From Candidatus Pacearchaeota archaeon (GTDB lineage Archaea; Nanobdellota; Nanobdellia; Pacearchaeales; GW2011-AR1): 47,901 nucleotides of DNA. Each line of letters starts with the position of its first letter. Within the stretch, counting starts at the first letter, position 1. The translations under genes and the position numbers were made by a program. The notes under the pieces are model-generated. The model did not search any database. It was not told the origin of the DNA and saw only the letters and a list, made by a program, of their open reading frames with translations. This document shows, one piece after another, positions 75 through 43,436 of this stretch. The stretch is from positions 1-47,901 of the forward strand of contig VGKP01000004.1 in the NCBI GenBank assembly GCA_016866975.1, written 5' to 3'.

Positions 75-88
75 TTTTGTGAAGAAAA

Positions 89-175
89 GCCTCTGGGGGG
101 AATTGAACCCCCGACCTCAAGTTTCTTCGACAACTGATACGAAACTTGCGCTCTGACCAACTGAGCTACAGAGGC
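89..175 (-). tRNA. tRNA-Thr(CGU) with a 14-nt intron at canonical position 37/38 (124-137)
   Basis: Reverse complement folds as a cloverleaf: acceptor GCCTCTG/CAGAGGC, D stem GCTC/GAGC, anticodon stem CAAGT/ACTTG around TT-CGT-A, T arm GGGGG-TTCAATT-CCCCC. Intron CGAA pairs with TTCG (positions 32-35), giving a bulge-helix-loop splice motif. No encoded CCA. Confidence 0.95.
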
Positions 176-6312: not shown

Positions 6313-7863
6313 CTATTTCTTTTGAACCTTCTTTATATAAGACCTTAGAATATCAAGCACCCTATCTTTCTGTGCAGGAACAAACCTTAATGCTCCTGCC
6401 TGCTTGTGGCCGCCACCTTCTGGAAATGCTTCTGGTGCGTTCTTTAAAATCTCATTTAAGAAATCATGAACAACAAAGTTGGAGTCATCTCCCGCCCTTA
6501 TAGTCACTAAATCACTCAATACCCCTATAGACACAACATTTCGAGTCTTTTTTTCTTCTTGATAAAAGTCATGAATCATTCCTACAACTTGTCCGGGCTT
6601 TGGATAAGCGTTCCTTGAGAAGGTCTCCTCCACAAACAATAATTGGAGAGTGGTTTTCCCGATAGTTTCTCTTTTAACTGTAGTTTTTGCTATATTTATG
6701 CCCCTTGCCTGCAACCCTCTGATGTGAGGATTCATAAGAGAGACTAGGGCTTTTTGCTTGTCAATTGGATCTCCAAAAACAACTTCAATATACTCTCTTG
6801 CTTCCATAAATCTTAATTTTGTTGAAACGTAGTCTATCAATGCGGCAATATCGTGCAAGAGCTCCTTTGTATACCCTTTCTTCTCTGCAATCTTGAGATA
6901 TTCAATCATCACAGAAGGATTATCTATCCTATCGGCCATTCCAGATAATGCTGGAAGATGATCTATTGCTATATCTGGGTTTATGAATCTTGCAAGTTCA
7001 GTGCAAAGCATGCCTGCAGAAAATGTCGAACCATCTTCTTTAACAAGAAAAGGATTTATGTGGACCAAAACCTCTGGAGAAGTAACATCTTCCTCAAAGA
7101 AGTGGTGGTCTACGACGATAAAATCGGCACCATGAATCTTTCCTTGTTTGATCCCTAGAATGCTTTCAGAACCCGATCCTGTGTCTACGATGACTACTAG
7201 AGGCATCTTATTTGAGAATTTTGCTACGTCTGAAAGGGAATGTGCTGTGTCTTTGATGGAATCTTCTATTTCGTAGAAAGGAGCGGCACTTGGGGCGCGA
7301 GTGTAATATTCCCAAGGGGCTTTTCCCCCGCCATGTTGCTTGATTATTAGAGGGATTATTGCACGTTCCAAAGAATATCCTGAAGAATAGCCGTCACAAT
7401 CATTATGGTGCCTTACAATTATTGGCCTATTCTTAACAATTGCAAGCCTTATTTCTGTAGCTGCCTGGATATATCTTTCCTTTAGTTTTTCCAAGACCGG
7501 ACTTTTTACGAGAAATGGGACTGGATGAACTGTTGCTATCTTTCTTTCCTCTGCCTCGATGTTTTTTCTAAGACTAGAAGCCTCATTTCCTTCCAATTTC
7601 ATTATCTTTCTTATCTCTCCTTCTAACGAGCCTTGAAATTCATTTATCTGGACAGTCACTTTAACTGCGTCTCCTTCTAATATATGTGGATAAGCTCGAA
7701 CACCTGCTCCATCAAAGCCCTTTAACATGAGTGTACCAGAACCATCTACTAGAGAAAACAGTGTTGGTCCGGTTGTTTGTGCCACGCGGTCAATTACTCC
7801 AGCTAGAGCTATTGTCTTTCTTTCATGCTGTTTAAGACTTATCTTCGCTATAGGTAGCTCCAT
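6313..7863 (-). CDS. RecJ-like DHH phosphoesterase with N-terminal OB fold
   Basis: HHNDCDG, VDTG, VVDHH and DHHA1-type GGGHKQAG motifs; N-terminal OB-fold-like beta region. Confidence 0.88.
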   Translation of the reverse strand: MELPIAKISLKQHERKTIALAGVIDRVAQTTGPTLFSLVDGSGTLMLKGFDGAGVRAYPHILEGDAVKVTVQINEFQGSLEGEIRKIMKLEGNEASSLRKNIEAEERKIATVHPVPFLVKSPVLEKLKERYIQAATEIRLAIVKNRPIIVRHHNDCDGYSSGYSLERAIIPLIIKQHGGGKAPWEYYTRAPSAAPFYEIEDSIKDTAHSLSDVAKFSNKMPLVVIVDTGSGSESILGIKQGKIHGADFIVVDHHFFEEDVTSPEVLVHINPFLVKEDGSTFSAGMLCTELARFINPDIAIDHLPALSGMADRIDNPSVMIEYLKIAEKKGYTKELLHDIAALIDYVSTKLRFMEAREYIEVVFGDPIDKQKALVSLMNPHIRGLQARGINIAKTTVKRETIGKTTLQLLFVEETFSRNAYPKPGQVVGMIHDFYQEEKKTRNVVSIGVLSDLVTIRAGDDSNFVVHDFLNEILKNAPEAFPEGGGHKQAGALRFVPAQKDRVLDILRSYIKKVQKK

Positions 7864-7985
7864 TGTAAGTGTTTACAGAAAAAACTTGTTTGTTTTCCTT
7901 CTGAATATAGATTAAAACAGTTGTTTGTTTAAATATCTTTCTAAATGTGGTTGTTTAAACGGCTGTTTTATGGATTTAGAAGATT

Positions 7986-8054
7986 ATAAACCCATAAGAG
8001 GAGGTCCCATCCTTCAAAAAGAGTGATGAAGCGTCCTCTTCTGGGGAAAAGAGG
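7986..8054 (-). ncRNA. 69-bp direct repeat copy 1; candidate small RNA gene or attachment site
   Basis: 67/69 identical to 11238-11306. Minus-strand TATA (plus tatttaag 8080-8087) lies 26 nt from the repeat edge, the same spacing as copy 2. 5' hairpin CCTCTT/AAGAGG. Confidence 0.5.
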
Positions 8055-8156
8055 TGTTATTATAATGATGGAAATTGGCTATTTAAGGGTTATGGAGGAT
8101 GAATCTTGAGGAGAAATCTTGGTTAAAAAGAGGTTTTGAAGATTAAACGAACTATT

Positions 8157-8447
8157 TTAATCTGAACCGGTCTCATCATGTCGCCAAATTTTTTCTCTAG
8201 ATCTAGATTTAAGGATTTTTCCGAGAGGGCTCTCGGGAGGAACACGAGAAAGTTCGTCCTCTGCAGCGAGGGGAAGAGAGCCTATTCCACAATCAATGCA
8301 GCACCATCCTCCGTAATACTCTCCAGTATGAACATTATAATAAGTTCCGTAGAGAGTCATATTTTCAAAACGTGTAGGGTGAAAAAATTGTTTTCCATCA
8401 TCCGACTTATAAATTGATCTTAGAGGATGTTCTGGACTGTTTGACAT
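8157..8447 (-). CDS. Hypothetical protein (96 aa, CxxC)
   Basis: ORF with TATA (plus tatttaaa 8470-8477) 23 nt upstream of the ATG. Confidence 0.65.
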   Translation of the reverse strand: MSNSPEHPLRSIYKSDDGKQFFHPTRFENMTLYGTYYNVHTGEYYGGWCCIDCGIGSLPLAAEDELSRVPPESPLGKILKSRSREKIWRHDETGSD

Positions 8448-8529
8448 TTTACTTTTATTAATGAAGGAGTATTTAAAGTTTTAGATAACGGTCTATGCTT
8501 TTTTGAGATTAGGGAATTTTTATTTGGTG

Positions 8530-8585
8530 TCAAGAATTGCTATTCTTGATCGTGATCAAGAACTGAAGAATCTGGCGGTTCTTGA
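8530..8585. repeat. Twin TCAAGAA/TTCTTGA hairpins (Q-family related)
   Basis: tcaagaat-tgct-attcttga (8530-8549) and tcaagaac...gttcttga (8556-8585). Confidence 0.65.
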
Positions 8586-8600
8586 CGTTAAACGAACTAT

Positions 8601-8963
8601 TTATTTTGATTCTTTGAAAGGTGCTGAGTGGCGATCTAAGAAGGTCGCTTTGTAAAATTGAACTGTGTATGTGGTTTGTGTTGGGCCGTCTTCATAAGAG
8701 CCTTTAGAACAAGTATAGGCATTAACTGTCCGAGGCGATTTTCCAGATTTTTGCTCTGCCCATCGCGCTAATGAGTTCAATCTTTTTCTCAAGGTCTTTC
8801 TATTTGCTTCAAGTGTTGGTTCGTGGTCGAGACTAAAAGATTCTGGGAATCCTACTGGAGTGGCAAATGCAAAGATTTCTTCTCCTTTTAGATTTTCGGC
8901 AAAGAAGTAATTTCTATCTCCACTTGGGTAGATAATCTCTCTAAGTCTTGGTGTTCGATGCAT
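8601..8963 (-). CDS. Hypothetical protein (about 120 aa)
   Basis: The ORF-track start 8993 lies inside a repeat element; ATG 8963 (MHRTPRL) is more plausible. Confidence 0.65.
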   Translation of the reverse strand: MHRTPRLREIIYPSGDRNYFFAENLKGEEIFAFATPVGFPESFSLDHEPTLEANRKTLRKRLNSLARWAEQKSGKSPRTVNAYTCSKGSYEDGPTQTTYTVQFYKATFLDRHSAPFKESK

Positions 8964-8970
8964 GATTTTA

Positions 8971-9094
8971 TCATCAAAAAAACGATGCGCCACTGTGGCT
9001 TAAACGCCGCAGTTTGATGCAGGCGCTCGTTTTTTGGATGCTCAAGGAACAACTCCAGCTTAAAAGCTGGAGTTTTAGTCAAGTTCCTTGACAT
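8971..9094 (-). repeat. R-family bipartite structured element, divergent copy
   Basis: Same architecture and linkers as 33907-34025 and 39730-39848, with compensatory stem changes. Confidence 0.85.
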
Positions 9095-9183
9095 AAAAAT
9101 TGCCTATTTAAGTTTTTCTGTTTGAAAAATAGCTAAAAATTGGTTAAAACGGCGGTTAATATAGATTATGCGAACTAATTGGT

Positions 9184-9408
9184 TTATTTATGATTAACCG
9201 AGAAAATTTGTAGCAAATTATTAAGATGATACTTAAGAATACCTTCTCTCAAATCATTCCCCTCTTCTCCGTCAAGATCCTTGCTTCCTGCTTGTTTACG
9301 AAAAGCAATAATATCTTGAAAGTGAGCATCGGCTAATTTTGTTCCTGTCTCTAGAATATTCAAATATATTTGAAAGGTTTGCTTTTTAGGGGCAATAACC
9401 TTTATCAT
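9184..9408 (-). CDS. Hypothetical protein (74 aa)
   Basis: ORF co-oriented with its neighbours and followed by the array motif; no recognisable domain. Confidence 0.55.
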   Translation of the reverse strand: MIKVIAPKKQTFQIYLNILETGTKLADAHFQDIIAFRKQAGSKDLDGEEGNDLREGILKYHLNNLLQIFSVNHK

Positions 9409-9470
9409 CTCTGCTAAACCCTTAAATATAGAATGATGAATTTTCTAATTTATTTAAAGATTTGTATGAT

Positions 9471-9553
9471 CGGGCGTGTTCGGCGCTTCGCGCCTCACCT
9501 ATGTTTGAGGTTATTGTTTTAGACTTTGCCTGAGCCTTATACTTAAACGAACC
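9471..9553. repeat. S-family element: GC hairpin + TTGARGTTATTGTTTTAGA + TTAAACGAAC
   Basis: Collinear with 10535-10616 (83 vs 82 nt). Confidence 0.7.
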
Positions 9554-9592
9554 TTGTTGTTATGCTGAAAGTTATTGTAGATAGCTAAAAGA

Positions 9593-9769
9593 TTAAGCGG
9601 AGTGATTTCTACGGTAAAGATCGAGAATTCCCGTAATCAAAAGAAAAAGACCAACAGTGATCGCGAGTATATTTGGCCATATGAGGATGATTAATCCAAC
9701 AATGATTGAAAGTACAGACGTTAAATCTTGAGTGTTTGTGCTGTTTGAGTTGTTTGTTTTTTTAGGCAT
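9593..9769 (-). CDS. Small 2-TM protein resembling DUF3096 (58 aa; absent from the ORF track)
   Basis: Hand translation MPKKTNNSNSTNTQDLTSVLSIIVGLIILIWPNILAITVGLFLLITGILDLYRRNHSA; TATA (plus tttttata 9791-9798) 22 nt upstream. Confidence 0.75.
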   Translation of the reverse strand: MPKKTNNSNSTNTQDLTSVLSIIVGLIILIWPNILAITVGLFLLITGILDLYRRNHSA

Positions 9770-10040
9770 AGGTGTTTAAGAAAAAGAAAGTTTTTATACT
9801 TTTTGACGATTATGTATAAACACCATCTACTTTCATGTCTTATTGCTAACTTTTTCCGATGCAGTAAAATAATAGGTGATGCTATTGGTGTTCAAAGGCG
9901 TTTAAGATTTGGTAATTGCGGCGTTTTGAGCGAGAGGTTTATACTGAGGAGAAGAGAAAGGCATCATCGTTAGGTTTAATGTCTGCATAAACGAGGCAAT
10001 CGTGTCTCTGATGCAATTAATGCGAACTTATTTATAAAAG

Positions 10041-10068
10041 AGTTCGTATAAGGTAGCTTGTACGAAGT
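10041..10068. other. dif/lox-like tyrosine recombinase site (11-6-11)
   Basis: AGTTCGTATAA-GGTAGC-TTGTACGAAGT; the arms are inverted repeats (9/11 match). Confidence 0.6.
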
Positions 10069-10094
10069 ATTTTTTGGTTTATTAATGCGAATTT

Positions 10095-10496
10095 TTAGAA
10101 ACCGAGATTTTTCATATCTGTATATCCCCAATATCCGTTTTGCTTGTCTTCCTGTACTAATTGAGGAATTATATTTTCTAGAGAACGTGCAAGAGCTCTT
10201 CCTGAGTCTGTAAGGAGATAACCTATCTTATCCTCGCTTTCTCTCGCGCCCCGTATTCGTGCTTGACTCGCCATCCCTCGCCTTACTGCCTCTTGCAACA
10301 TGAATGCGCAATCCATATACTCTCGTTTATTTTTTGTTTCCCTGTATTTATTTAATCCTAACAGCTCCACTTTAACGCTGCCTGGAAAGTACGCCTCGTG
10401 AATAAATTTCTGAGTTGGTTCTTCTTTGGCTTTTTGCTCAAGACAATGGAGTGCATAAATACACGCATTAAATTTCTGCTGGTTGGTGTTAATCAT
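10095..10496 (-). CDS. Hypothetical protein, possibly winged-helix
   Basis: C-terminal GYLLTDSGRAL resembles a wHTH wing; TATA (plus tatttaac 10518-10525) 22 nt upstream. Confidence 0.65.
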   Translation of the reverse strand: MINTNQQKFNACIYALHCLEQKAKEEPTQKFIHEAYFPGSVKVELLGLNKYRETKNKREYMDCAFMLQEAVRRGMASQARIRGARESEDKIGYLLTDSGRALARSLENIIPQLVQEDKQNGYWGYTDMKNLGF

Positions 10497-10534
10497 TTTT
10501 TTAGAGATAAGGGGAGGTATTTAACTCTTTCTGT

Positions 10535-10616
10535 CGGGCGCGGTCGCGCCTGCGGCGCTCCTGGAGTTGAAGTTATTGTTTTAGATGTGGGGTGTGAGGA
10601 GAGATTAATACGAACT
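10535..10616. repeat. S-family element, second copy
   Basis: cgggcg + ggcgcggtcgcgcc hairpin + ttgaagttattgttttaga + ttaatacgaact. Confidence 0.7.
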
Positions 10617-10868
10617 TTAATGCTTGTAAATGTTCTTTCTATGCCCTATTTCGATGAGAAGAATGATAAGATTGCTCTCAATGATATCGAGAATTATTCG
10701 ATAGTCTCCTACGCGCAACTTAAATCCTGGTTCTCCGACTAGTTTTTCAACAAAATCTTGTGGACGAATCTTGATGCGTTCAAGGACAGAGATGATTCTT
10801 TCTTGGATTGATTTGTCCAGGTTTTTTAGTTGCCTTTCGACTTTATTAGGTATAATAATACTATACAT
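10617..10868 (-). CDS. relE: RelE/StbE-family type II toxin
   Basis: 83 aa with KLRVGDYRII and IEIGHRKNIY; start overlaps the antitoxin stop (TAATG). Confidence 0.92.
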   Translation of the reverse strand: MYSIIIPNKVERQLKNLDKSIQERIISVLERIKIRPQDFVEKLVGEPGFKLRVGDYRIILDIIESNLIILLIEIGHRKNIYKH

Positions 10869-11089
10869 TATGGGTCTAGATCTTCCTTCACTTGCTCGAA
10901 GGTTTTGTATTTGCCCTCGTTATATTCTTGTCGAGATTGAGCGATGCTTTTTTTCGTTTCTTCTGATAATTCAAGGCGATCTTCGATGAGATCCCAGAGA
11001 AGGTCTTCATAACTTTCCTTCTCGTGTAGTTTCATTACTTTGAGTTTGGCAAGGAGCTCAGTGCTCACTTGGATGGTGGTTTCTGCCAT
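10868..11089 (-). CDS. Cognate antitoxin (N-terminal RHH-like)
   Basis: TTIQVS N-terminal strand, acidic C-terminus, directly upstream of the toxin. Confidence 0.85.
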   Translation of the reverse strand: MAETTIQVSTELLAKLKVMKLHEKESYEDLLWDLIEDRLELSEETKKSIAQSRQEYNEGKYKTFEQVKEDLDP

Positions 11090-11119: not shown

Positions 11120-11237
11120 AGTTTTCTCTCGTGCTTAAGAATTCTGGTTGTGCTTAAAAGATTGAGCTTGATTTTTGACGTTAATGTTTGTGGTGTTTAA
11201 AAAAATAGTAGTGGCCCTGATGACTACAATAGGCGTC

Positions 11238-11306
11238 ATAAACCCATAAGAGGAGGTCCCATCCATCAAAAAGAGTGATGAAACGTCCTCTTCTGGGGAA
11301 AAGAGG
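11238..11306 (-). ncRNA. 69-bp direct repeat copy 2; candidate small RNA gene or attachment site
   Basis: TATA (plus tatttaaa 11332-11339) 26 nt from the repeat edge; a T-run follows on the minus strand near 11200. Confidence 0.5.
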
Positions 11307-11574
11307 CGATAAGATATCTAAGAATAGGTATTATTTAAATCTTATGCTGTGTTTATAGTTGTCGACGATAGAGAGAGTGTTTTTGAGTGTTTTTTGCTGT
11401 CTAAACAGATGTTTATATCTTAATATGTGGTGTTTGAGTAAATTAAATTGCTGTTTGAGGTGTCTTGCCCGAGTTTTTTGAAGTGTTTATGGGGTGTTGG
11501 AATGGTGTTTTTTATGCTTTTTTATCCTCGCTGATGTAGAAAGGTTTATAAAGTAGAGGTGTTGGTATACTATT

Positions 11575-12219
11575 ATGTTTGGTTGGTTATTCAAAAATAG
11601 AGAAAAAGAGAATGGTGATGAAATTCGAGAAAGCTTTTCTGCTGTAAAAAAAGACATGGATGTTGTAGGAAAGTGGATCAAACACCTTGATGGAGCAGAT
11701 AAACAGCTGTTTTCTATATTAAATTCAATAAAGTCTGATTTATCGAATATAAAAAATGAAATTGGAATAATAAGGGAAGAGGTTGATGCGATGAAGGAAG
11801 GCCATAATCATCAACAGGTGTTTGAAAATTTGCCTGTTTTAGGTAAACAAACAGGTGATGAAGATGTTTATACGGCTGTTCAAACGCCTGTTCAAACAGG
11901 TAATTTTTATGAGATTTTTAAGGGTTTAACCCCTCATGAGAGAGCATTGATATTTACATTAATGAATAGTGATCTAAAACTAAGTTATGAAGATTTGGCT
12001 TTGTTGATGGGGAAGGAAAAGTCAACGGTTAGAGGGCAAATAAATGCAATAAAGCAGAAGAGTGAGGGGCTGATTGAGGAGATTACAGAGAAAAATGGGA
12101 AAAAAAGAGTGTTTGTACCCCTAGAAATTAAGGAAAAACTGTCAAAATACGCAAAAGTGAGAGTTGGTAAAAAGAAGAAAGTTCGCGTTAATGCTGTTTC
12201 TGAGGAGAATTTGTCATGA
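11575..12219 (+). CDS. Coiled-coil / winged-helix DNA-binding protein (paralog A)
   Basis: N-terminal heptads, VQTPVQT linker, C-terminal HTH (LSYEDLALLMGKEKSTVRGQINAIK) plus wing. Confidence 0.8.
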   Translation: MFGWLFKNREKENGDEIRESFSAVKKDMDVVGKWIKHLDGADKQLFSILNSIKSDLSNIKNEIGIIREEVDAMKEGHNHQQVFENLPVLGKQTGDEDVYTAVQTPVQTGNFYEIFKGLTPHERALIFTLMNSDLKLSYEDLALLMGKEKSTVRGQINAIKQKSEGLIEEITEKNGKKRVFVPLEIKEKLSKYAKVRVGKKKKVRVNAVSEENLS

Positions 12220-12508: not shown

Positions 12509-13429
12509 TTAGATGTCTCTGAGCTGGAAAATTGTGGGAAGAGAGGCTATTTTTTTAAGATCTGGAGAGATCTGAAGTATAATCTTCTTGTTATTTTCCT
12601 TAGTTTTAAGAATAGGTGAGCCTTTTTTAATGAGTTTTTGTACGTAATCACGTATAGAGCTCTCGGTCAAAGAGAGTTTTTGGGCTAAGAGAGGATAATC
12701 TACTGTAAATCCTTGTTCTTCTAATTGATAAATTGCAGAGAATACTTCCATCTCTTGTTTTGTGAGCCTCTTGAATTTTAAACGAACTTCTTTCTTTGCT
12801 TGATCTAGAGTCTCTAAGGCTTCTGAGATCTCGAATAGGTGCTGGAATGTGTGTTCTTGAGGGGTTCTAGAACCGATTTTTGTGTGTAAATGGATGTGCT
12901 GGTCTGTCTGCTGGTCTGTCTGTCTGTCTGCTGGAACCCCATCATTTCCACTGGAAACCATTGATTTTATGCCTTTTAGGACGTATTGATGTGGTTTTTG
13001 TGCTGGAATGCTGGAATTGGTGTGCTGGAATGCTGGGTTTTCTGGATTTTGTGCTGGAATAAGTGTGTTGGTCTGTCTGTCTGCTGAAGAGAACCTAGGT
13101 TCTCTCTCAACACTCTCCTCTTTTGATGAAGGGAAACTAAAATCTTTCTCAACACTCTCCTTCCTAAGGAAACCTTGGTTTCCTTGTGGGTCAACCTTCC
13201 TTTCAACAGGCCCTCCTGAAGGGAAACTAAAATCTTTCTCAACACTCTCCTTCCTAAGGAAACAAAGGTTTCCTTGTGGGTCAACCTTCCTTTCAACACT
13301 CTCCTCTTTTAGGATATCATCTAGTGTCTGTCTTAAGAAAGAAGTTTCTTCATTGAGAAAGGCTATTTGATCTTTGAGGTATTGAATATCTGCCTTTGCT
13401 TTCGCGAAGGCTTCTTTGATTGGGTCCAT
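12509..13429 (-). CDS. Coiled-coil / winged-helix DNA-binding protein (paralog B) with an in-frame repeat insertion
   Basis: N-terminal heptads, QTD-rich linker, C-terminal HTH (YPLLAQKLSLTESSIRDYVQKLIKKG); same layout as paralog A. Confidence 0.8.
   Translation of the reverse strand: MDPIKEAFAKAKADIQYLKDQIAFLNEETSFLRQTLDDILKEESVERKVDPQGNLCFLRKESVEKDFSFPSGGPVERKVDPQGNQGFLRKESVEKDFSFPSSKEESVEREPRFSSADRQTNTLIPAQNPENPAFQHTNSSIPAQKPHQYVLKGIKSMVSSGNDGVPADRQTDQQTDQHIHLHTKIGSRTPQEHTFQHLFEISEALETLDQAKKEVRLKFKRLTKQEMEVFSAIYQLEEQGFTVDYPLLAQKLSLTESSIRDYVQKLIKKGSPILKTKENNKKIILQISPDLKKIASLPTIFQLRDI
12936..12958 (-). promoter_or_regulatory. ORB-like box (origin recognition box) inside the CDS
   Basis: GTTTCCAGTGGAAATGATGGGGT: TTCCAGTGGAA dyad plus G-string, matching the archaeal ORB consensus. 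Confidence 0.65.
13084..13308. repeat. P-family hairpin mosaic inserted in frame in the CDS (contains a 90-bp period duplication)
   Basis: Modules gaagagaacc-NN-ggttctc, tcaacactctcc and ccttgtgggtcaaccttcc also occur intergenically at 33.7-33.9 and 43.3 kb. Confidence 0.85.
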
Positions 13430-33701: not shown

Positions 33702-33835
33702 CTGAAGAGAACCAAGGTTCCCTCTCAACACCTTCCTTCTGAAGAGAACCAAGGTTCCCTCTCAACACCTTCCTTCTGAAGAGAACCAAGGTTCCCTCTC
33801 AACACCTTCCTTCTGAAGAGAACCAAGGTTCTCTC
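33702..33835 (+). repeat. Tandem array of 37-bp P units (three full plus one partial), without spacers
   Basis: ctgaagagaaccaaggttccctctcaacaccttcctt starts at 33702, 33739, 33776 and 33813. Confidence 0.9.
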
Positions 33836-33905
33836 AGGGATTCATAATCCCTGATGACCGTCAAGAATCAGCAGATTCTTGAGGCCTTGTGGGTCAACCT
33901 TCCTT
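33821..33905 (+). repeat. P/Q composite double-hairpin element, copy 1
   Basis: 85 bp identical to 43270-43354. Confidence 0.92.
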
Positions 33906-33906
33906 A

Positions 33907-34025
33907 TGTCGGGAACCGATGAAAACCACACCTTTCAAGGTGTGGTGGTTCCCGAGCATCTCCAAAAACGAGCGCCTGCAACAAACCTCGGCTTTTAAGC
34001 CGAGGTGGCGCATCGTTTTTGTGAT
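33907..34025 (+). repeat. R-family bipartite structured element, copy 1
   Basis: 119 bp identical to 39730-39848. Confidence 0.92.
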
Positions 34026-34173
34026 TAAGAAACATTATCTTTCACTTATCAAATTTAAGAAAGGCAGATATCTAAAATGGGTTTTCTTTGGTGACATCAG
34101 TTAAATATACAAGCTCTTGTCAAATAAATTTTCAAAAATAAGAAAACAAGAGCTTTCTCAGAGAGAAAAAATC

Positions 34174-39247: not shown

Positions 39248-39745
39248 TTGATTATGGCCTATGAGACGATTTTTAACAGTGAACTAGCACAAACGGCGCT
39301 TGTCTTCGTTTTGGTGTTTACTCTTGTCAACGCAGTCTTGCAGAAGTCAAAGATTCTGGGAGATGGAAAGAATAGCGCAGATGCTCTTGTGGCGCTTGCA
39401 GTAGGCCTTTTAGTATCTACGGTAGGATATGCTACTGACATAATAAGAAGACTTGTACCTTTCTTAGGGGTATCTCTAGTTGTGATACTAGTTTTCTTGT
39501 TATTAGTGGCGATATTCTTCTCAGAAGGAAAGTTTGAGTTGCATAGTGGGGTCCTGATTGCATTTGGGATTATAGCATTTGTTGCAGTAGTAATAGCCGT
39601 CGCTAATATAACGGGGGCGTGGACATATGTCAAGGACTTCTTTGCTGGAGGAGATGACAATTCTTTTGCAGCAAACTTGATATTGATATTGGTAGTTGTT
39701 GGAGCAGTATTTTTCGCATTAAAATATTCTGTCGGGAACCGATGA
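39248..39745 (+). CDS. Membrane protein, paralog 1 of a local trio; stop codon lies within an R element
   Basis: FVLVFTLVNAVLQKSKILG...ALAVGLL...VPFLGV motif shared with the two downstream paralogs. Confidence 0.8.
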   Translation: MIMAYETIFNSELAQTALVFVLVFTLVNAVLQKSKILGDGKNSADALVALAVGLLVSTVGYATDIIRRLVPFLGVSLVVILVFLLLVAIFFSEGKFELHSGVLIAFGIIAFVAVVIAVANITGAWTYVKDFFAGGDDNSFAANLILILVVVGAVFFALKYSVGNR

Positions 39746-39848
39746 AAACCACACCTTTCAAGGTGTGGTGGTTCCCGAGCATCTCCAAAAACGAGCGCCT
39801 GCAACAAACCTCGGCTTTTAAGCCGAGGTGGCGCATCGTTTTTGTGAT
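39730..39848 (+). repeat. R-family element, copy 2
   Basis: Identical to 33907-34025; overlaps the last five codons of the upstream CDS. Confidence 0.92.
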
Positions 39849-39873
39849 AAATAATGTCAAAATAATGTCAAAA

Positions 39874-43228: not shown

Positions 43229-43269
43229 CGTAAATAAAAGATGATTGGGTTTAAAATCCTTCCTAAGGA

Positions 43270-43354
43270 AACCAAGGTTCTCTCAGGGATTCATAATCCC
43301 TGATGACCGTCAAGAATCAGCAGATTCTTGAGGCCTTGTGGGTCAACCTTCCTT
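43270..43354 (+). repeat. P/Q composite double-hairpin element, copy 2
   Basis: 85 bp identical to 33821-33905; lies in a divergent promoter region. Confidence 0.92.
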
Positions 43355-43436
43355 TCAATAAACTCTCCTATCAAAATAAAGGAGCACCTATAGAAACCTA
43401 TTTAATATTTGGTCTGCGTGGAAATGATGAAAGAAC

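Follow-up and report, generated by a model that had tools for sequence, protein, structure and literature searches.

The window, by which we mean the whole stretch of 47,901 nucleotides analyzed here, belongs to a 0.8-Mb, 89%-complete archaeal assembly (G000). It carries a 69-nt sequence in two direct copies, at 7986–8054 and 11238–11306, which differ at two positions and whose identity decays right beyond the edges (repeat family D7). The duplication had been reported in the first-pass annotation and was reproduced in our analysis; a 97% match over 69 nt lies well outside what chance would produce in 48 kb, and the family recurs, conserved, across hundreds of genomes. Each copy is preceded by a TATA box when read on the minus strand. 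Both boxes, which the first-pass annotation had placed 26 nt from the repeat edge, lie exactly 23 nt before the sequence C(A/G)CCUC (starting at 8056 and 11308), in agreement with that placement, and the two 23-nt spacers are non-conserved and unrelated to each other. On another contig of the assembly (G000:C7:36459–36535) there is a third copy, which is 90% identical and has its TATA box at the same distance. These three are referred to below as copies A, B, and C, and the coordinates of the features are collected in Table 1. In our interpretation, to which as a whole we assign a probability of approximately 0.6, each 69-nt repeat is the body of a stand-alone, non-coding gene of approximately 75 nt for a structured small RNA (sRNA) on the minus strand, and the two genes are paralogous.

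Table 1. Positions of the predicted sRNA genes with their parts and neighbors in the window, and of the copies on virus contigs
Feature	Position	Strand	Remarks
OB-fold/DHH (RecJ-like) gene	6313..7863	−	123 nt downstream of copy A; synteny in G016 and G008
Predicted sRNA gene, copy A	7983..8058	−	approximately 76 nt; CM R1 85.7 bits; predicted fold −24.1 kcal/mol, z −3.2
Copy A, 5' tail	8058–8047	−	AACACCUCUUUU
Copy A, clamp	CCC 8045–8043 with GGG 7993–7991	−	
Copy A, hairpin	8040–7996	−	
Copy A, 3' end	7990–7983	−	UUUAUAAU
TATA box of copy A	8080..8087	−	CTTAAATA; 23 nt upstream of CACCUC
Same-strand small-gene run between the copies	8157..11089	−	Pfam scan; outside the RNA
DUF3096 membrane peptide	9593–9769	−	Pfam scan
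ParE toxin	10617–10868	−	Pfam scan
DUF7557 antitoxin-like gene	10868–11089	−	Pfam scan
Predicted sRNA gene, copy B	11236..11310	−	CM R1 83.4 bits; predicted fold −28.3 kcal/mol, z −3.6
Copy B, 5' tail		−	AUCGCCUCUUUU; A-to-G within the otherwise invariant CACC; body A-type
TATA box of copy B	11332..11339	−	TTTAAATA; 23 nt upstream of CGCCUC
214-aa HTH gene	11575..12219	+	divergent from copy B; marker of the conserved B locus
Viral copy	L255:4979–5035	−	IMG/VR contig
Viral copy	L256:5468–5529	−	IMG/VR contig
Viral copy	L282:1413–1463	+	IMG/VR contig
Viral copy	L287:2712–2787	+	IMG/VR contig
Viral copy	L274:982–1049	+	IMG/VR contig

Copy A was found upstream of the OB-fold/DHH gene in three genomes, with positional orthologues in G016 and G008; the Pfam DHH, OB, and DHHA1 matches of this gene were all below the Pfam curated cut-offs. 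The locus of copy B beside the HTH gene is shared with the copies G016c, G005b, G010, G015c, and G025b, and occurs in six genomes of two genera. At the locus of copy C, the sRNA is divergent from scpA; this arrangement was represented by 15 loci from four genera in the first sample, and copy C, at this widely shared locus, is probably the ancestral one.

The common flanks (the DHH gene and the HTH gene) enclose small genes, all on one strand, over 3.2 kb in G000, 5.1 kb in G016, and 6.1 kb in G008. The enclosed genes mostly differ among the three genomes; a DUF3096 peptide, a ParE pair, and a 130-aa gene are among the shared ones. G016 has both sRNA copies, 5.1 kb apart, and G008 has the variable gene run with copy A and without copy B. 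The flank-enclosed region (8157–11089 in the window; L247:4700–9700; L248:1700–7600) resembles a variable cassette-like region, for which the first-pass annotation had noted a candidate post-gene motif, TTAAACGAACT. Among the other dispersed repeats of the window (families D1–D6 and I1–I2, at 12970–13316, 33702–34031, 39727–39854, 43257–43378, and 8966–9034) are tandem units of 37 nt and two 128-nt sequences that are 98% identical; one of the repeat arms falls between the two sRNA copies.

The body of copy B in G000 differs by a single indel from G016a, the A copy of G016, and is only approximately 85% identical to its positional orthologue, G016c. Because the 69-nt block of identity is sharp-edged and copy B is closer to G016a than to G016c, we infer that A and B are nearly identical because gene conversion or replacement took place recently between two old paralogous loci. 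Such a tract would explain the duplication without an integration event.

Structure and conservation of the predicted RNA

Copies A, B, and C were each predicted to fold as one long hairpin, with a 5' tail of approximately 12 nt and a short 3' tail left unpaired (−24 to −31 kcal/mol; z = −3.2 to −5.8 against shuffled sequences). The single-stranded 5' tail, (A)UCACCUCUUUUU, is invariant across the family and is followed by a C-G clamp of 3–4 bp (CCC/GGG), a conserved A-containing mismatch, and a hairpin whose sequence and length vary freely, with pairing maintained by compensatory changes. In the aligned relatives, the elements are arranged in the order of a BRE-like CCGAAAG, the TATA box at −31 to −24, a conserved T-A-T, the invariant CACCUCUUUUU, one variable base, CCC, (A/G)G, the variable hairpin, a short pyrimidine-rich stretch with a conserved A, and the 3' end GGGUUUA(UAAU). 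Of these, T-A-T-CACCUCUUUUU, CCC, and GGGUUU were invariant or nearly so in 208 sequences, in which the position of the TATA box was the same. Conservation is strongest in the 5' tail, the helix base, and the 3' GGGUUUA, and the hairpin between them is variable: RNAs of the Woesearchaeota type are 45–55 nt long and commonly have UUCG loops, and those of the Pacearchaeota type are 68–73 nt long with U-rich loops.

The helix was examined in an alignment of 73 diverse sequences, in which 94% of the cells were paired, compared with 69% for shuffled partners and 31–57% for slid partners. Compensatory changes were found in 16 of the 18 helix pairs; this alignment was fitted to the model, and identical swaps are visible in the raw sequences. 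Cells with G-U or U-G numbered 109 versus 12 with A-C or C-A, and the structure was therefore assigned to the RNA read from the minus strand rather than to the complementary strand or double-stranded DNA. Among the hairpins named in the first-pass annotation, the helix AAGAGGA/UCCUCUU is supported by compensatory changes; the pairing CCUCUU/AAGAGG is likewise present in the sequence of the window, but it is lost in relatives where the stem changes.

Transcription probably starts at the purine directly preceding CACCUC. If, as the promoter geometry suggests, the start is the A of UAUCACC, the canonical RNA would begin with AUCACCUC. The starts near 8057 and 11309 that had been predicted for the two copies fit this conserved geometry, and the first-pass view of an sRNA with its own promoter is upheld for a predicted minus-strand gene, the transcription of which is deduced from sequence. 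We consider it very likely that the sRNA represents a real family of structured RNA genes.

Upstream of the sRNA, the stretch GTTACAAC...CCGAAAG-N-TTTAWATA is conserved across orders (in G000:C7 upstream of 36459 and at most C-type loci), where it separates the sRNA from the divergent scpA. At the C-type loci, the TATA box is near-palindromic and might drive transcription in both directions.

Distribution in genomes and head-tailed viruses

The sRNA was detected by BLAST in 14 of 16 genomes of the genus. In the family, 145 of 151 genera were positive with a covariance model (CM R1), as were all 30 high-quality genomes; in the order, CM R1 matched 146 of 151 genomes, with all nine families represented (68 of 69 high-quality genomes). 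A wider model built on class-wide sequences (CM R2) gave 52 positive genomes among the 151 of an evenly drawn class sample and 110 among the 151 of a phylum sample with at least 85% completeness. The E-values of both covariance models are rough, and a negative genome may carry a diverged form. Some families were consistently negative (for example 0/17, 0/16, and 0/9), and at the four scpA loci examined in genomes of such CM-negative families there was no sRNA beside scpA. Outside the Pacearchaeota-type order, approximately a quarter to a half of the sampled genomes of the other orders were without a detectable copy. Most genomes have one copy and some have two or three, at times in tandem. The sRNA is thus near-universal and mostly single-copy in the Pacearchaeota-type order and widespread in the rest of the Nanoarchaeota (Woesearchaeota-type).

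When named genomes were scanned with an exact pattern, at least 120 contigs matched, almost all labeled Woesearchaeota, Pacearchaeota, or Nanoarchaeota. Genuine members were also seen on short contigs named as Bacteroidetes, Methanosarcinales, or Thermococci MAGs, such as L192 (JADFGB010000187.1); contigs so named are probably mis-binned or misnamed Nanoarchaeota DNA, and the match in L158 (Gemmataceae) looks like chance. Tandem sRNA pairs 0–40 nt apart occur in several Woesearchaeota-type genomes (G298:C5:57077–57205, G474:C28:6797–6915, G481:C14:7833–7948, and G408:C15:8544–8690), and a longer paralogue class of 82–85 nt with a bigger insert was noted in G333, G353, and G383. In a 0.5-Mb single-contig genome of the class sample, CM R2 detected no sRNA. 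The cultured Nanoarchaeota presumably belong to lineages of this kind, without a detected copy, so transcriptome studies of these organisms would miss the sRNA.

Five contigs of head-tailed viruses in IMG/VR carry the sRNA (38–54 bits) with a TATA-like box upstream; they are the convincing matches to the model among 37 raw pattern matches in viral contigs, which were mostly due to chance, and L285 was set aside. The GenBank phage records gave no match. Terminase and portal genes are present on three of the five contigs: in two of these, the sRNA is located between the large terminase and portal genes, and in the third it is just upstream of RusA, terminase, and portal genes. A fourth contig has a baseplate-like gene. 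Two of the virus genomes are near-complete, one of 37.9 kb (98% completeness) and one of 31.6 kb with terminal repeats; each has a single sRNA copy, and neither tyrosine integrase, tRNA, nor other Rfam RNA was found in them. Genes for an RNA ligase and a DNA methyltransferase are further present in one of the two. The hairpins vary from virus to virus, whereas the tails and clamps are canonical, which argues that selection keeps the sRNA in the viruses, and not as an attachment site. Its viral carriage fits a role in core gene expression.

Possible roles of the RNA and competing explanations

The canonical tail, AUCACCUC(U)U, is identical to the 16S rRNA 3' end, GGAUCACCUCCU, over eight consecutive bases, a match that was noticed post hoc; copies A (AACACCUC) and B (AUCGCCUC) deviate within this 8-mer. 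The first-pass annotation had been right that the RNA bears a likeness to the 16S rRNA, but had placed it at GGACCUCCUCUU, which is the 3' strand of the freely varying helix (for example UCUGC or AUCUCC elsewhere in the phylum) and not a conserved anti-SD tract. We tentatively propose a trans-acting RNA or RNP in which the hairpin would be a stabilizing clamp only and the free 5' tail would do the work, the canonical tail mimicking the last bases of the organism's own 16S rRNA (AUCACCUC). Because it repeats the 16S 3' end, the tail would bind the partners of the 16S tail, and the candidates are SD-like purine tracts or a protein that recognizes the 16S 3' end or U-tracts, for example an Sm-like protein. 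Judged on sequence, such a trans-acting look-alike of the 16S tail is possible rather than probable.

The search for RNA partners gave little. In the organism's own genome, complements of the tail of at least 10 nt were restricted to the genes' own antisense strands and one 10-mer on contig C26, and a genome-wide duplex scan yielded a few isolated tail sites, none of them persuasive. A G-U-tolerant search and RNAduplex analysis of the 16S and 23S rRNAs, spacers, leader, trailer, SRP RNA, RNase P RNA, and 5S rRNA showed nothing above background. An SD precedes only approximately 10% of the genes here, most of which are leaderless, and few genes would be reached by a general role directed at SDs. 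Among SD-like sites with extended complementarity in the organism's own genome and 121 genomes of the order, there was no recurrent gene and one homologous pair. With respect to seed-type antisense action, an invariant seed is present, and a crude search of the own genome and the 121 genomes gave no recurrent target.

These results bear on a second explanation, namely that the sRNA is a protein-bound scaffold or decoy that acts without base pairing. The binding platform, for instance for an Sm-like protein, a KH protein, or a nuclease, would then consist of the tail together with the clamp mismatch and the 3' UUUA, and the likeness to 16S rRNA would be coincidental. Invariance confined to the single-stranded tails and the helix base, with a hairpin free to vary, is consistent with such a platform, as is the lack of a conserved RNA target in the searches above. 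The tail is followed by U5, which adjoins the terminal hairpin in an Sm-site-like layout, and the genome has an LSM (Sm-like) gene. Against this, the presence of LSM does not track that of the sRNA; since LSM is near-universal (140/151 in the class), this evidence is neutral. Nor was a conserved RNA-binding gene seen among the neighbors. The frequent ones are the divergent scpA (52 of 120 loci), a convergent S24e/Rpo7/PIN cluster (19–39 loci each), and a Lon-like gene (35 loci). We regard the scaffold or decoy as a serious possibility, if still the lesser chance.

A more specific proposal is that a phylum-wide housekeeping RNA displays a free 16S tail, AUCACCUC, and competes for or delivers the readers of the anti-SD, which could be SD-led mRNAs or a late 30S maturation or initiation factor. 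The viral copies would then tilt initiation toward the virus. We consider this unlikely in its full form.

Copies A and B could also act in cis, each as a portable strong promoter with a stable 5' leader, for the DHH gene and for the ParE/antitoxin run. Both point into same-strand genes 123–149 nt away, no long T-run lies behind either copy, and copy A has been kept upstream of the DHH gene in three genomes. The genes downstream of A and B are unrelated to each other, however, and the gene run occurs in G008 without a B copy. Across the family, the nearest downstream ORF is convergent at 68 of 106 loci, from which it follows that the sRNA is not generally a leader, and the canonical copy itself faces a convergent gene. 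A role in cis therefore appears improbable to us.

According to the first-pass annotation, the sRNA might be an integration target, so that the two copies would be att-type direct repeats produced when the 3.2-kb island entered the sRNA gene and restored its 5' part and promoter. Direct repeats do flank variable, accessory-looking genes including a toxin-antitoxin pair, but Pfam scans of seven of the larger ORFs between the copies revealed no integrase or recombinase. Neither repeat is partial: both are full genes, whose promoters differ and yet are equally spaced. The loci are shared with relatives, B with six genomes of two genera and A with three genomes. Of the relatives, G008 has only copy A, with the variable run in place, and G016 has both copies at a distance of 5.1 kb around other genes. 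The two near-complete viruses that carry the RNA are likewise without a tyrosine integrase, and the sharp edges of the identity block favor gene conversion over integration. The claim of an integration target thus fails on several counts, and we hold it to be very improbable.

Still less can be said for membership in a described class, whether as a guide RNA of the C/D or H/ACA type, as a tRNA or half of one, or as a piece of rRNA, SRP RNA, or RNase P RNA. The size is tRNA-like, the strong promoter is typical of stable RNAs, and the plus strand of G000 reads GUGAUGA, which resembles a C box. The first-pass annotation had suggested an Rfam and covariance-model check: models from relatives detected the family widely, as described above, whereas Rfam 15, searched at gathering and relaxed thresholds with the window, copy A (E up to 10), and 19 diverse members (E up to 1), gave no match for the sRNA. 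For box C/D sRNAs, the sense-strand consensus has neither a C nor a D box, the Rfam C/D models gave no match on the sRNA, and GUGAUGA is antisense, not conserved, and confined to some Pacearchaeota-type copies. For H/ACA sRNAs, both the ACA box and the guide pocket are lacking; the helix runs almost unbroken, with mismatches of only 1–2 nt, many loops are plain UUCG, GAAA, or GUAA, and the RNA ends in GGGUUUA on its 3' side. The consensus forms one hairpin and not a tRNA or split-tRNA half, and ARAGORN reported nothing at the sRNA copies; ARAGORN and Rfam reported only the tRNA at 88–175 in the window. Complete rRNAs exist elsewhere in the genome, the 16S covering model positions 1–1478 and the 23S positions 1–2987, and the SRP RNA, RNase P RNA, and 5S rRNA were also located elsewhere. 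Assignment to a described class is accordingly a very remote prospect, and the sRNA, by its sequence features, appears to match no known RNA class and is undescribed in Rfam and in the literature searched.

Three side observations were made on the known RNA genes. The tRNA gene at 88–175 (minus strand, 88 nt; Rfam 63 bits), for which ARAGORN gives an undetermined four-base anticodon, probably holds an intron. The 23S rRNA gene (G000:C6:2670–6513) is 3844 nt long against a model of 2987 positions and therefore has approximately 850 nt of inserted sequence, probably one or more introns. A tRNA-like stretch was seen in the 16S-23S spacer of G000.

Finally, a micropeptide encoded at the sRNA locus, either the 8-codon MGPPLMGL (minus strand) singled out in the first-pass annotation or MKRPLLGKRG... 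(plus strand), can be practically dismissed: both ORFs are present in the G000 copies and the three A-versus-C differences are synonymous in the plus-strand frame, but relatives have lost the start codons (AUG becomes AUC or AUU, for example), conservation tracks base pairing and not codons, and the class-wide consensus has no AUG.

Significance and comparison with known systems

To our knowledge, the Pacearchaeota and Woesearchaeota, archaea with tiny genomes, are abundant and uncultured, and their RNA biology is almost unknown. An sRNA that is found almost throughout an order, has 11 invariant single-stranded bases, and is preceded by a strong promoter very probably belongs to the core machinery of the cell. 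The covariance model is ready for annotating Pacearchaeota and Woesearchaeota genomes, and the sRNA can serve as a marker linking viruses to these hosts. The RNA is short and defined, and pull-downs or metatranscriptomes offer ways of seeking its partners. A likeness to the 16S tail, if functional, would represent a new mode of translation-initiation control.

In layout, the sRNA matches the U7 snRNA and minimal Sm-class snRNAs, which consist of a short 5' guide rich in CUCUUU, a U-tract, and a terminal hairpin (often with UUCG) within approximately 60 nt, and the genome encodes an Sm-like protein. There is neither sequence homology nor an Rfam match to these snRNAs, and we do not claim membership; in contrast to them, the U-tract of the sRNA is flanked by C and not by purines, the promoter is of the archaeal BRE/TATA type, and there is no known target comparable to the histone downstream element.

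Among bacterial trans-acting sRNAs, RybB, OmrA/B, and RsaE/RoxS have a conserved 5' or C/U-rich seed, and their families span a genus to a class with identifiable mRNA regulons. The sRNA resembles them in having a conserved single-stranded pyrimidine-rich 5' seed, complementary to SD-like purines, and a stable hairpin. It differs in the reach of its seed, which does not vary across a phylum, in the lack of a recurrent target among the sites searched, and in a genome of mostly leaderless genes. The 16S 3' tail itself differs from the tail of the sRNA, which stands at a 5' end and outside the ribosome, is followed by U5 instead of CU, and deviates in the shared 8-mer in paralogues A and B.

Phages are known to carry parts of the translation apparatus, such as bS21. 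The closest parallel to the viral copies is virus-borne tRNA genes: the sRNA is not a tRNA, and the two near-complete viruses carry it and no tRNA, but here too a gene for a host housekeeping RNA is carried with its promoter by head-tailed viruses. As with tRNAs elsewhere, this viral carriage points toward the core machinery.
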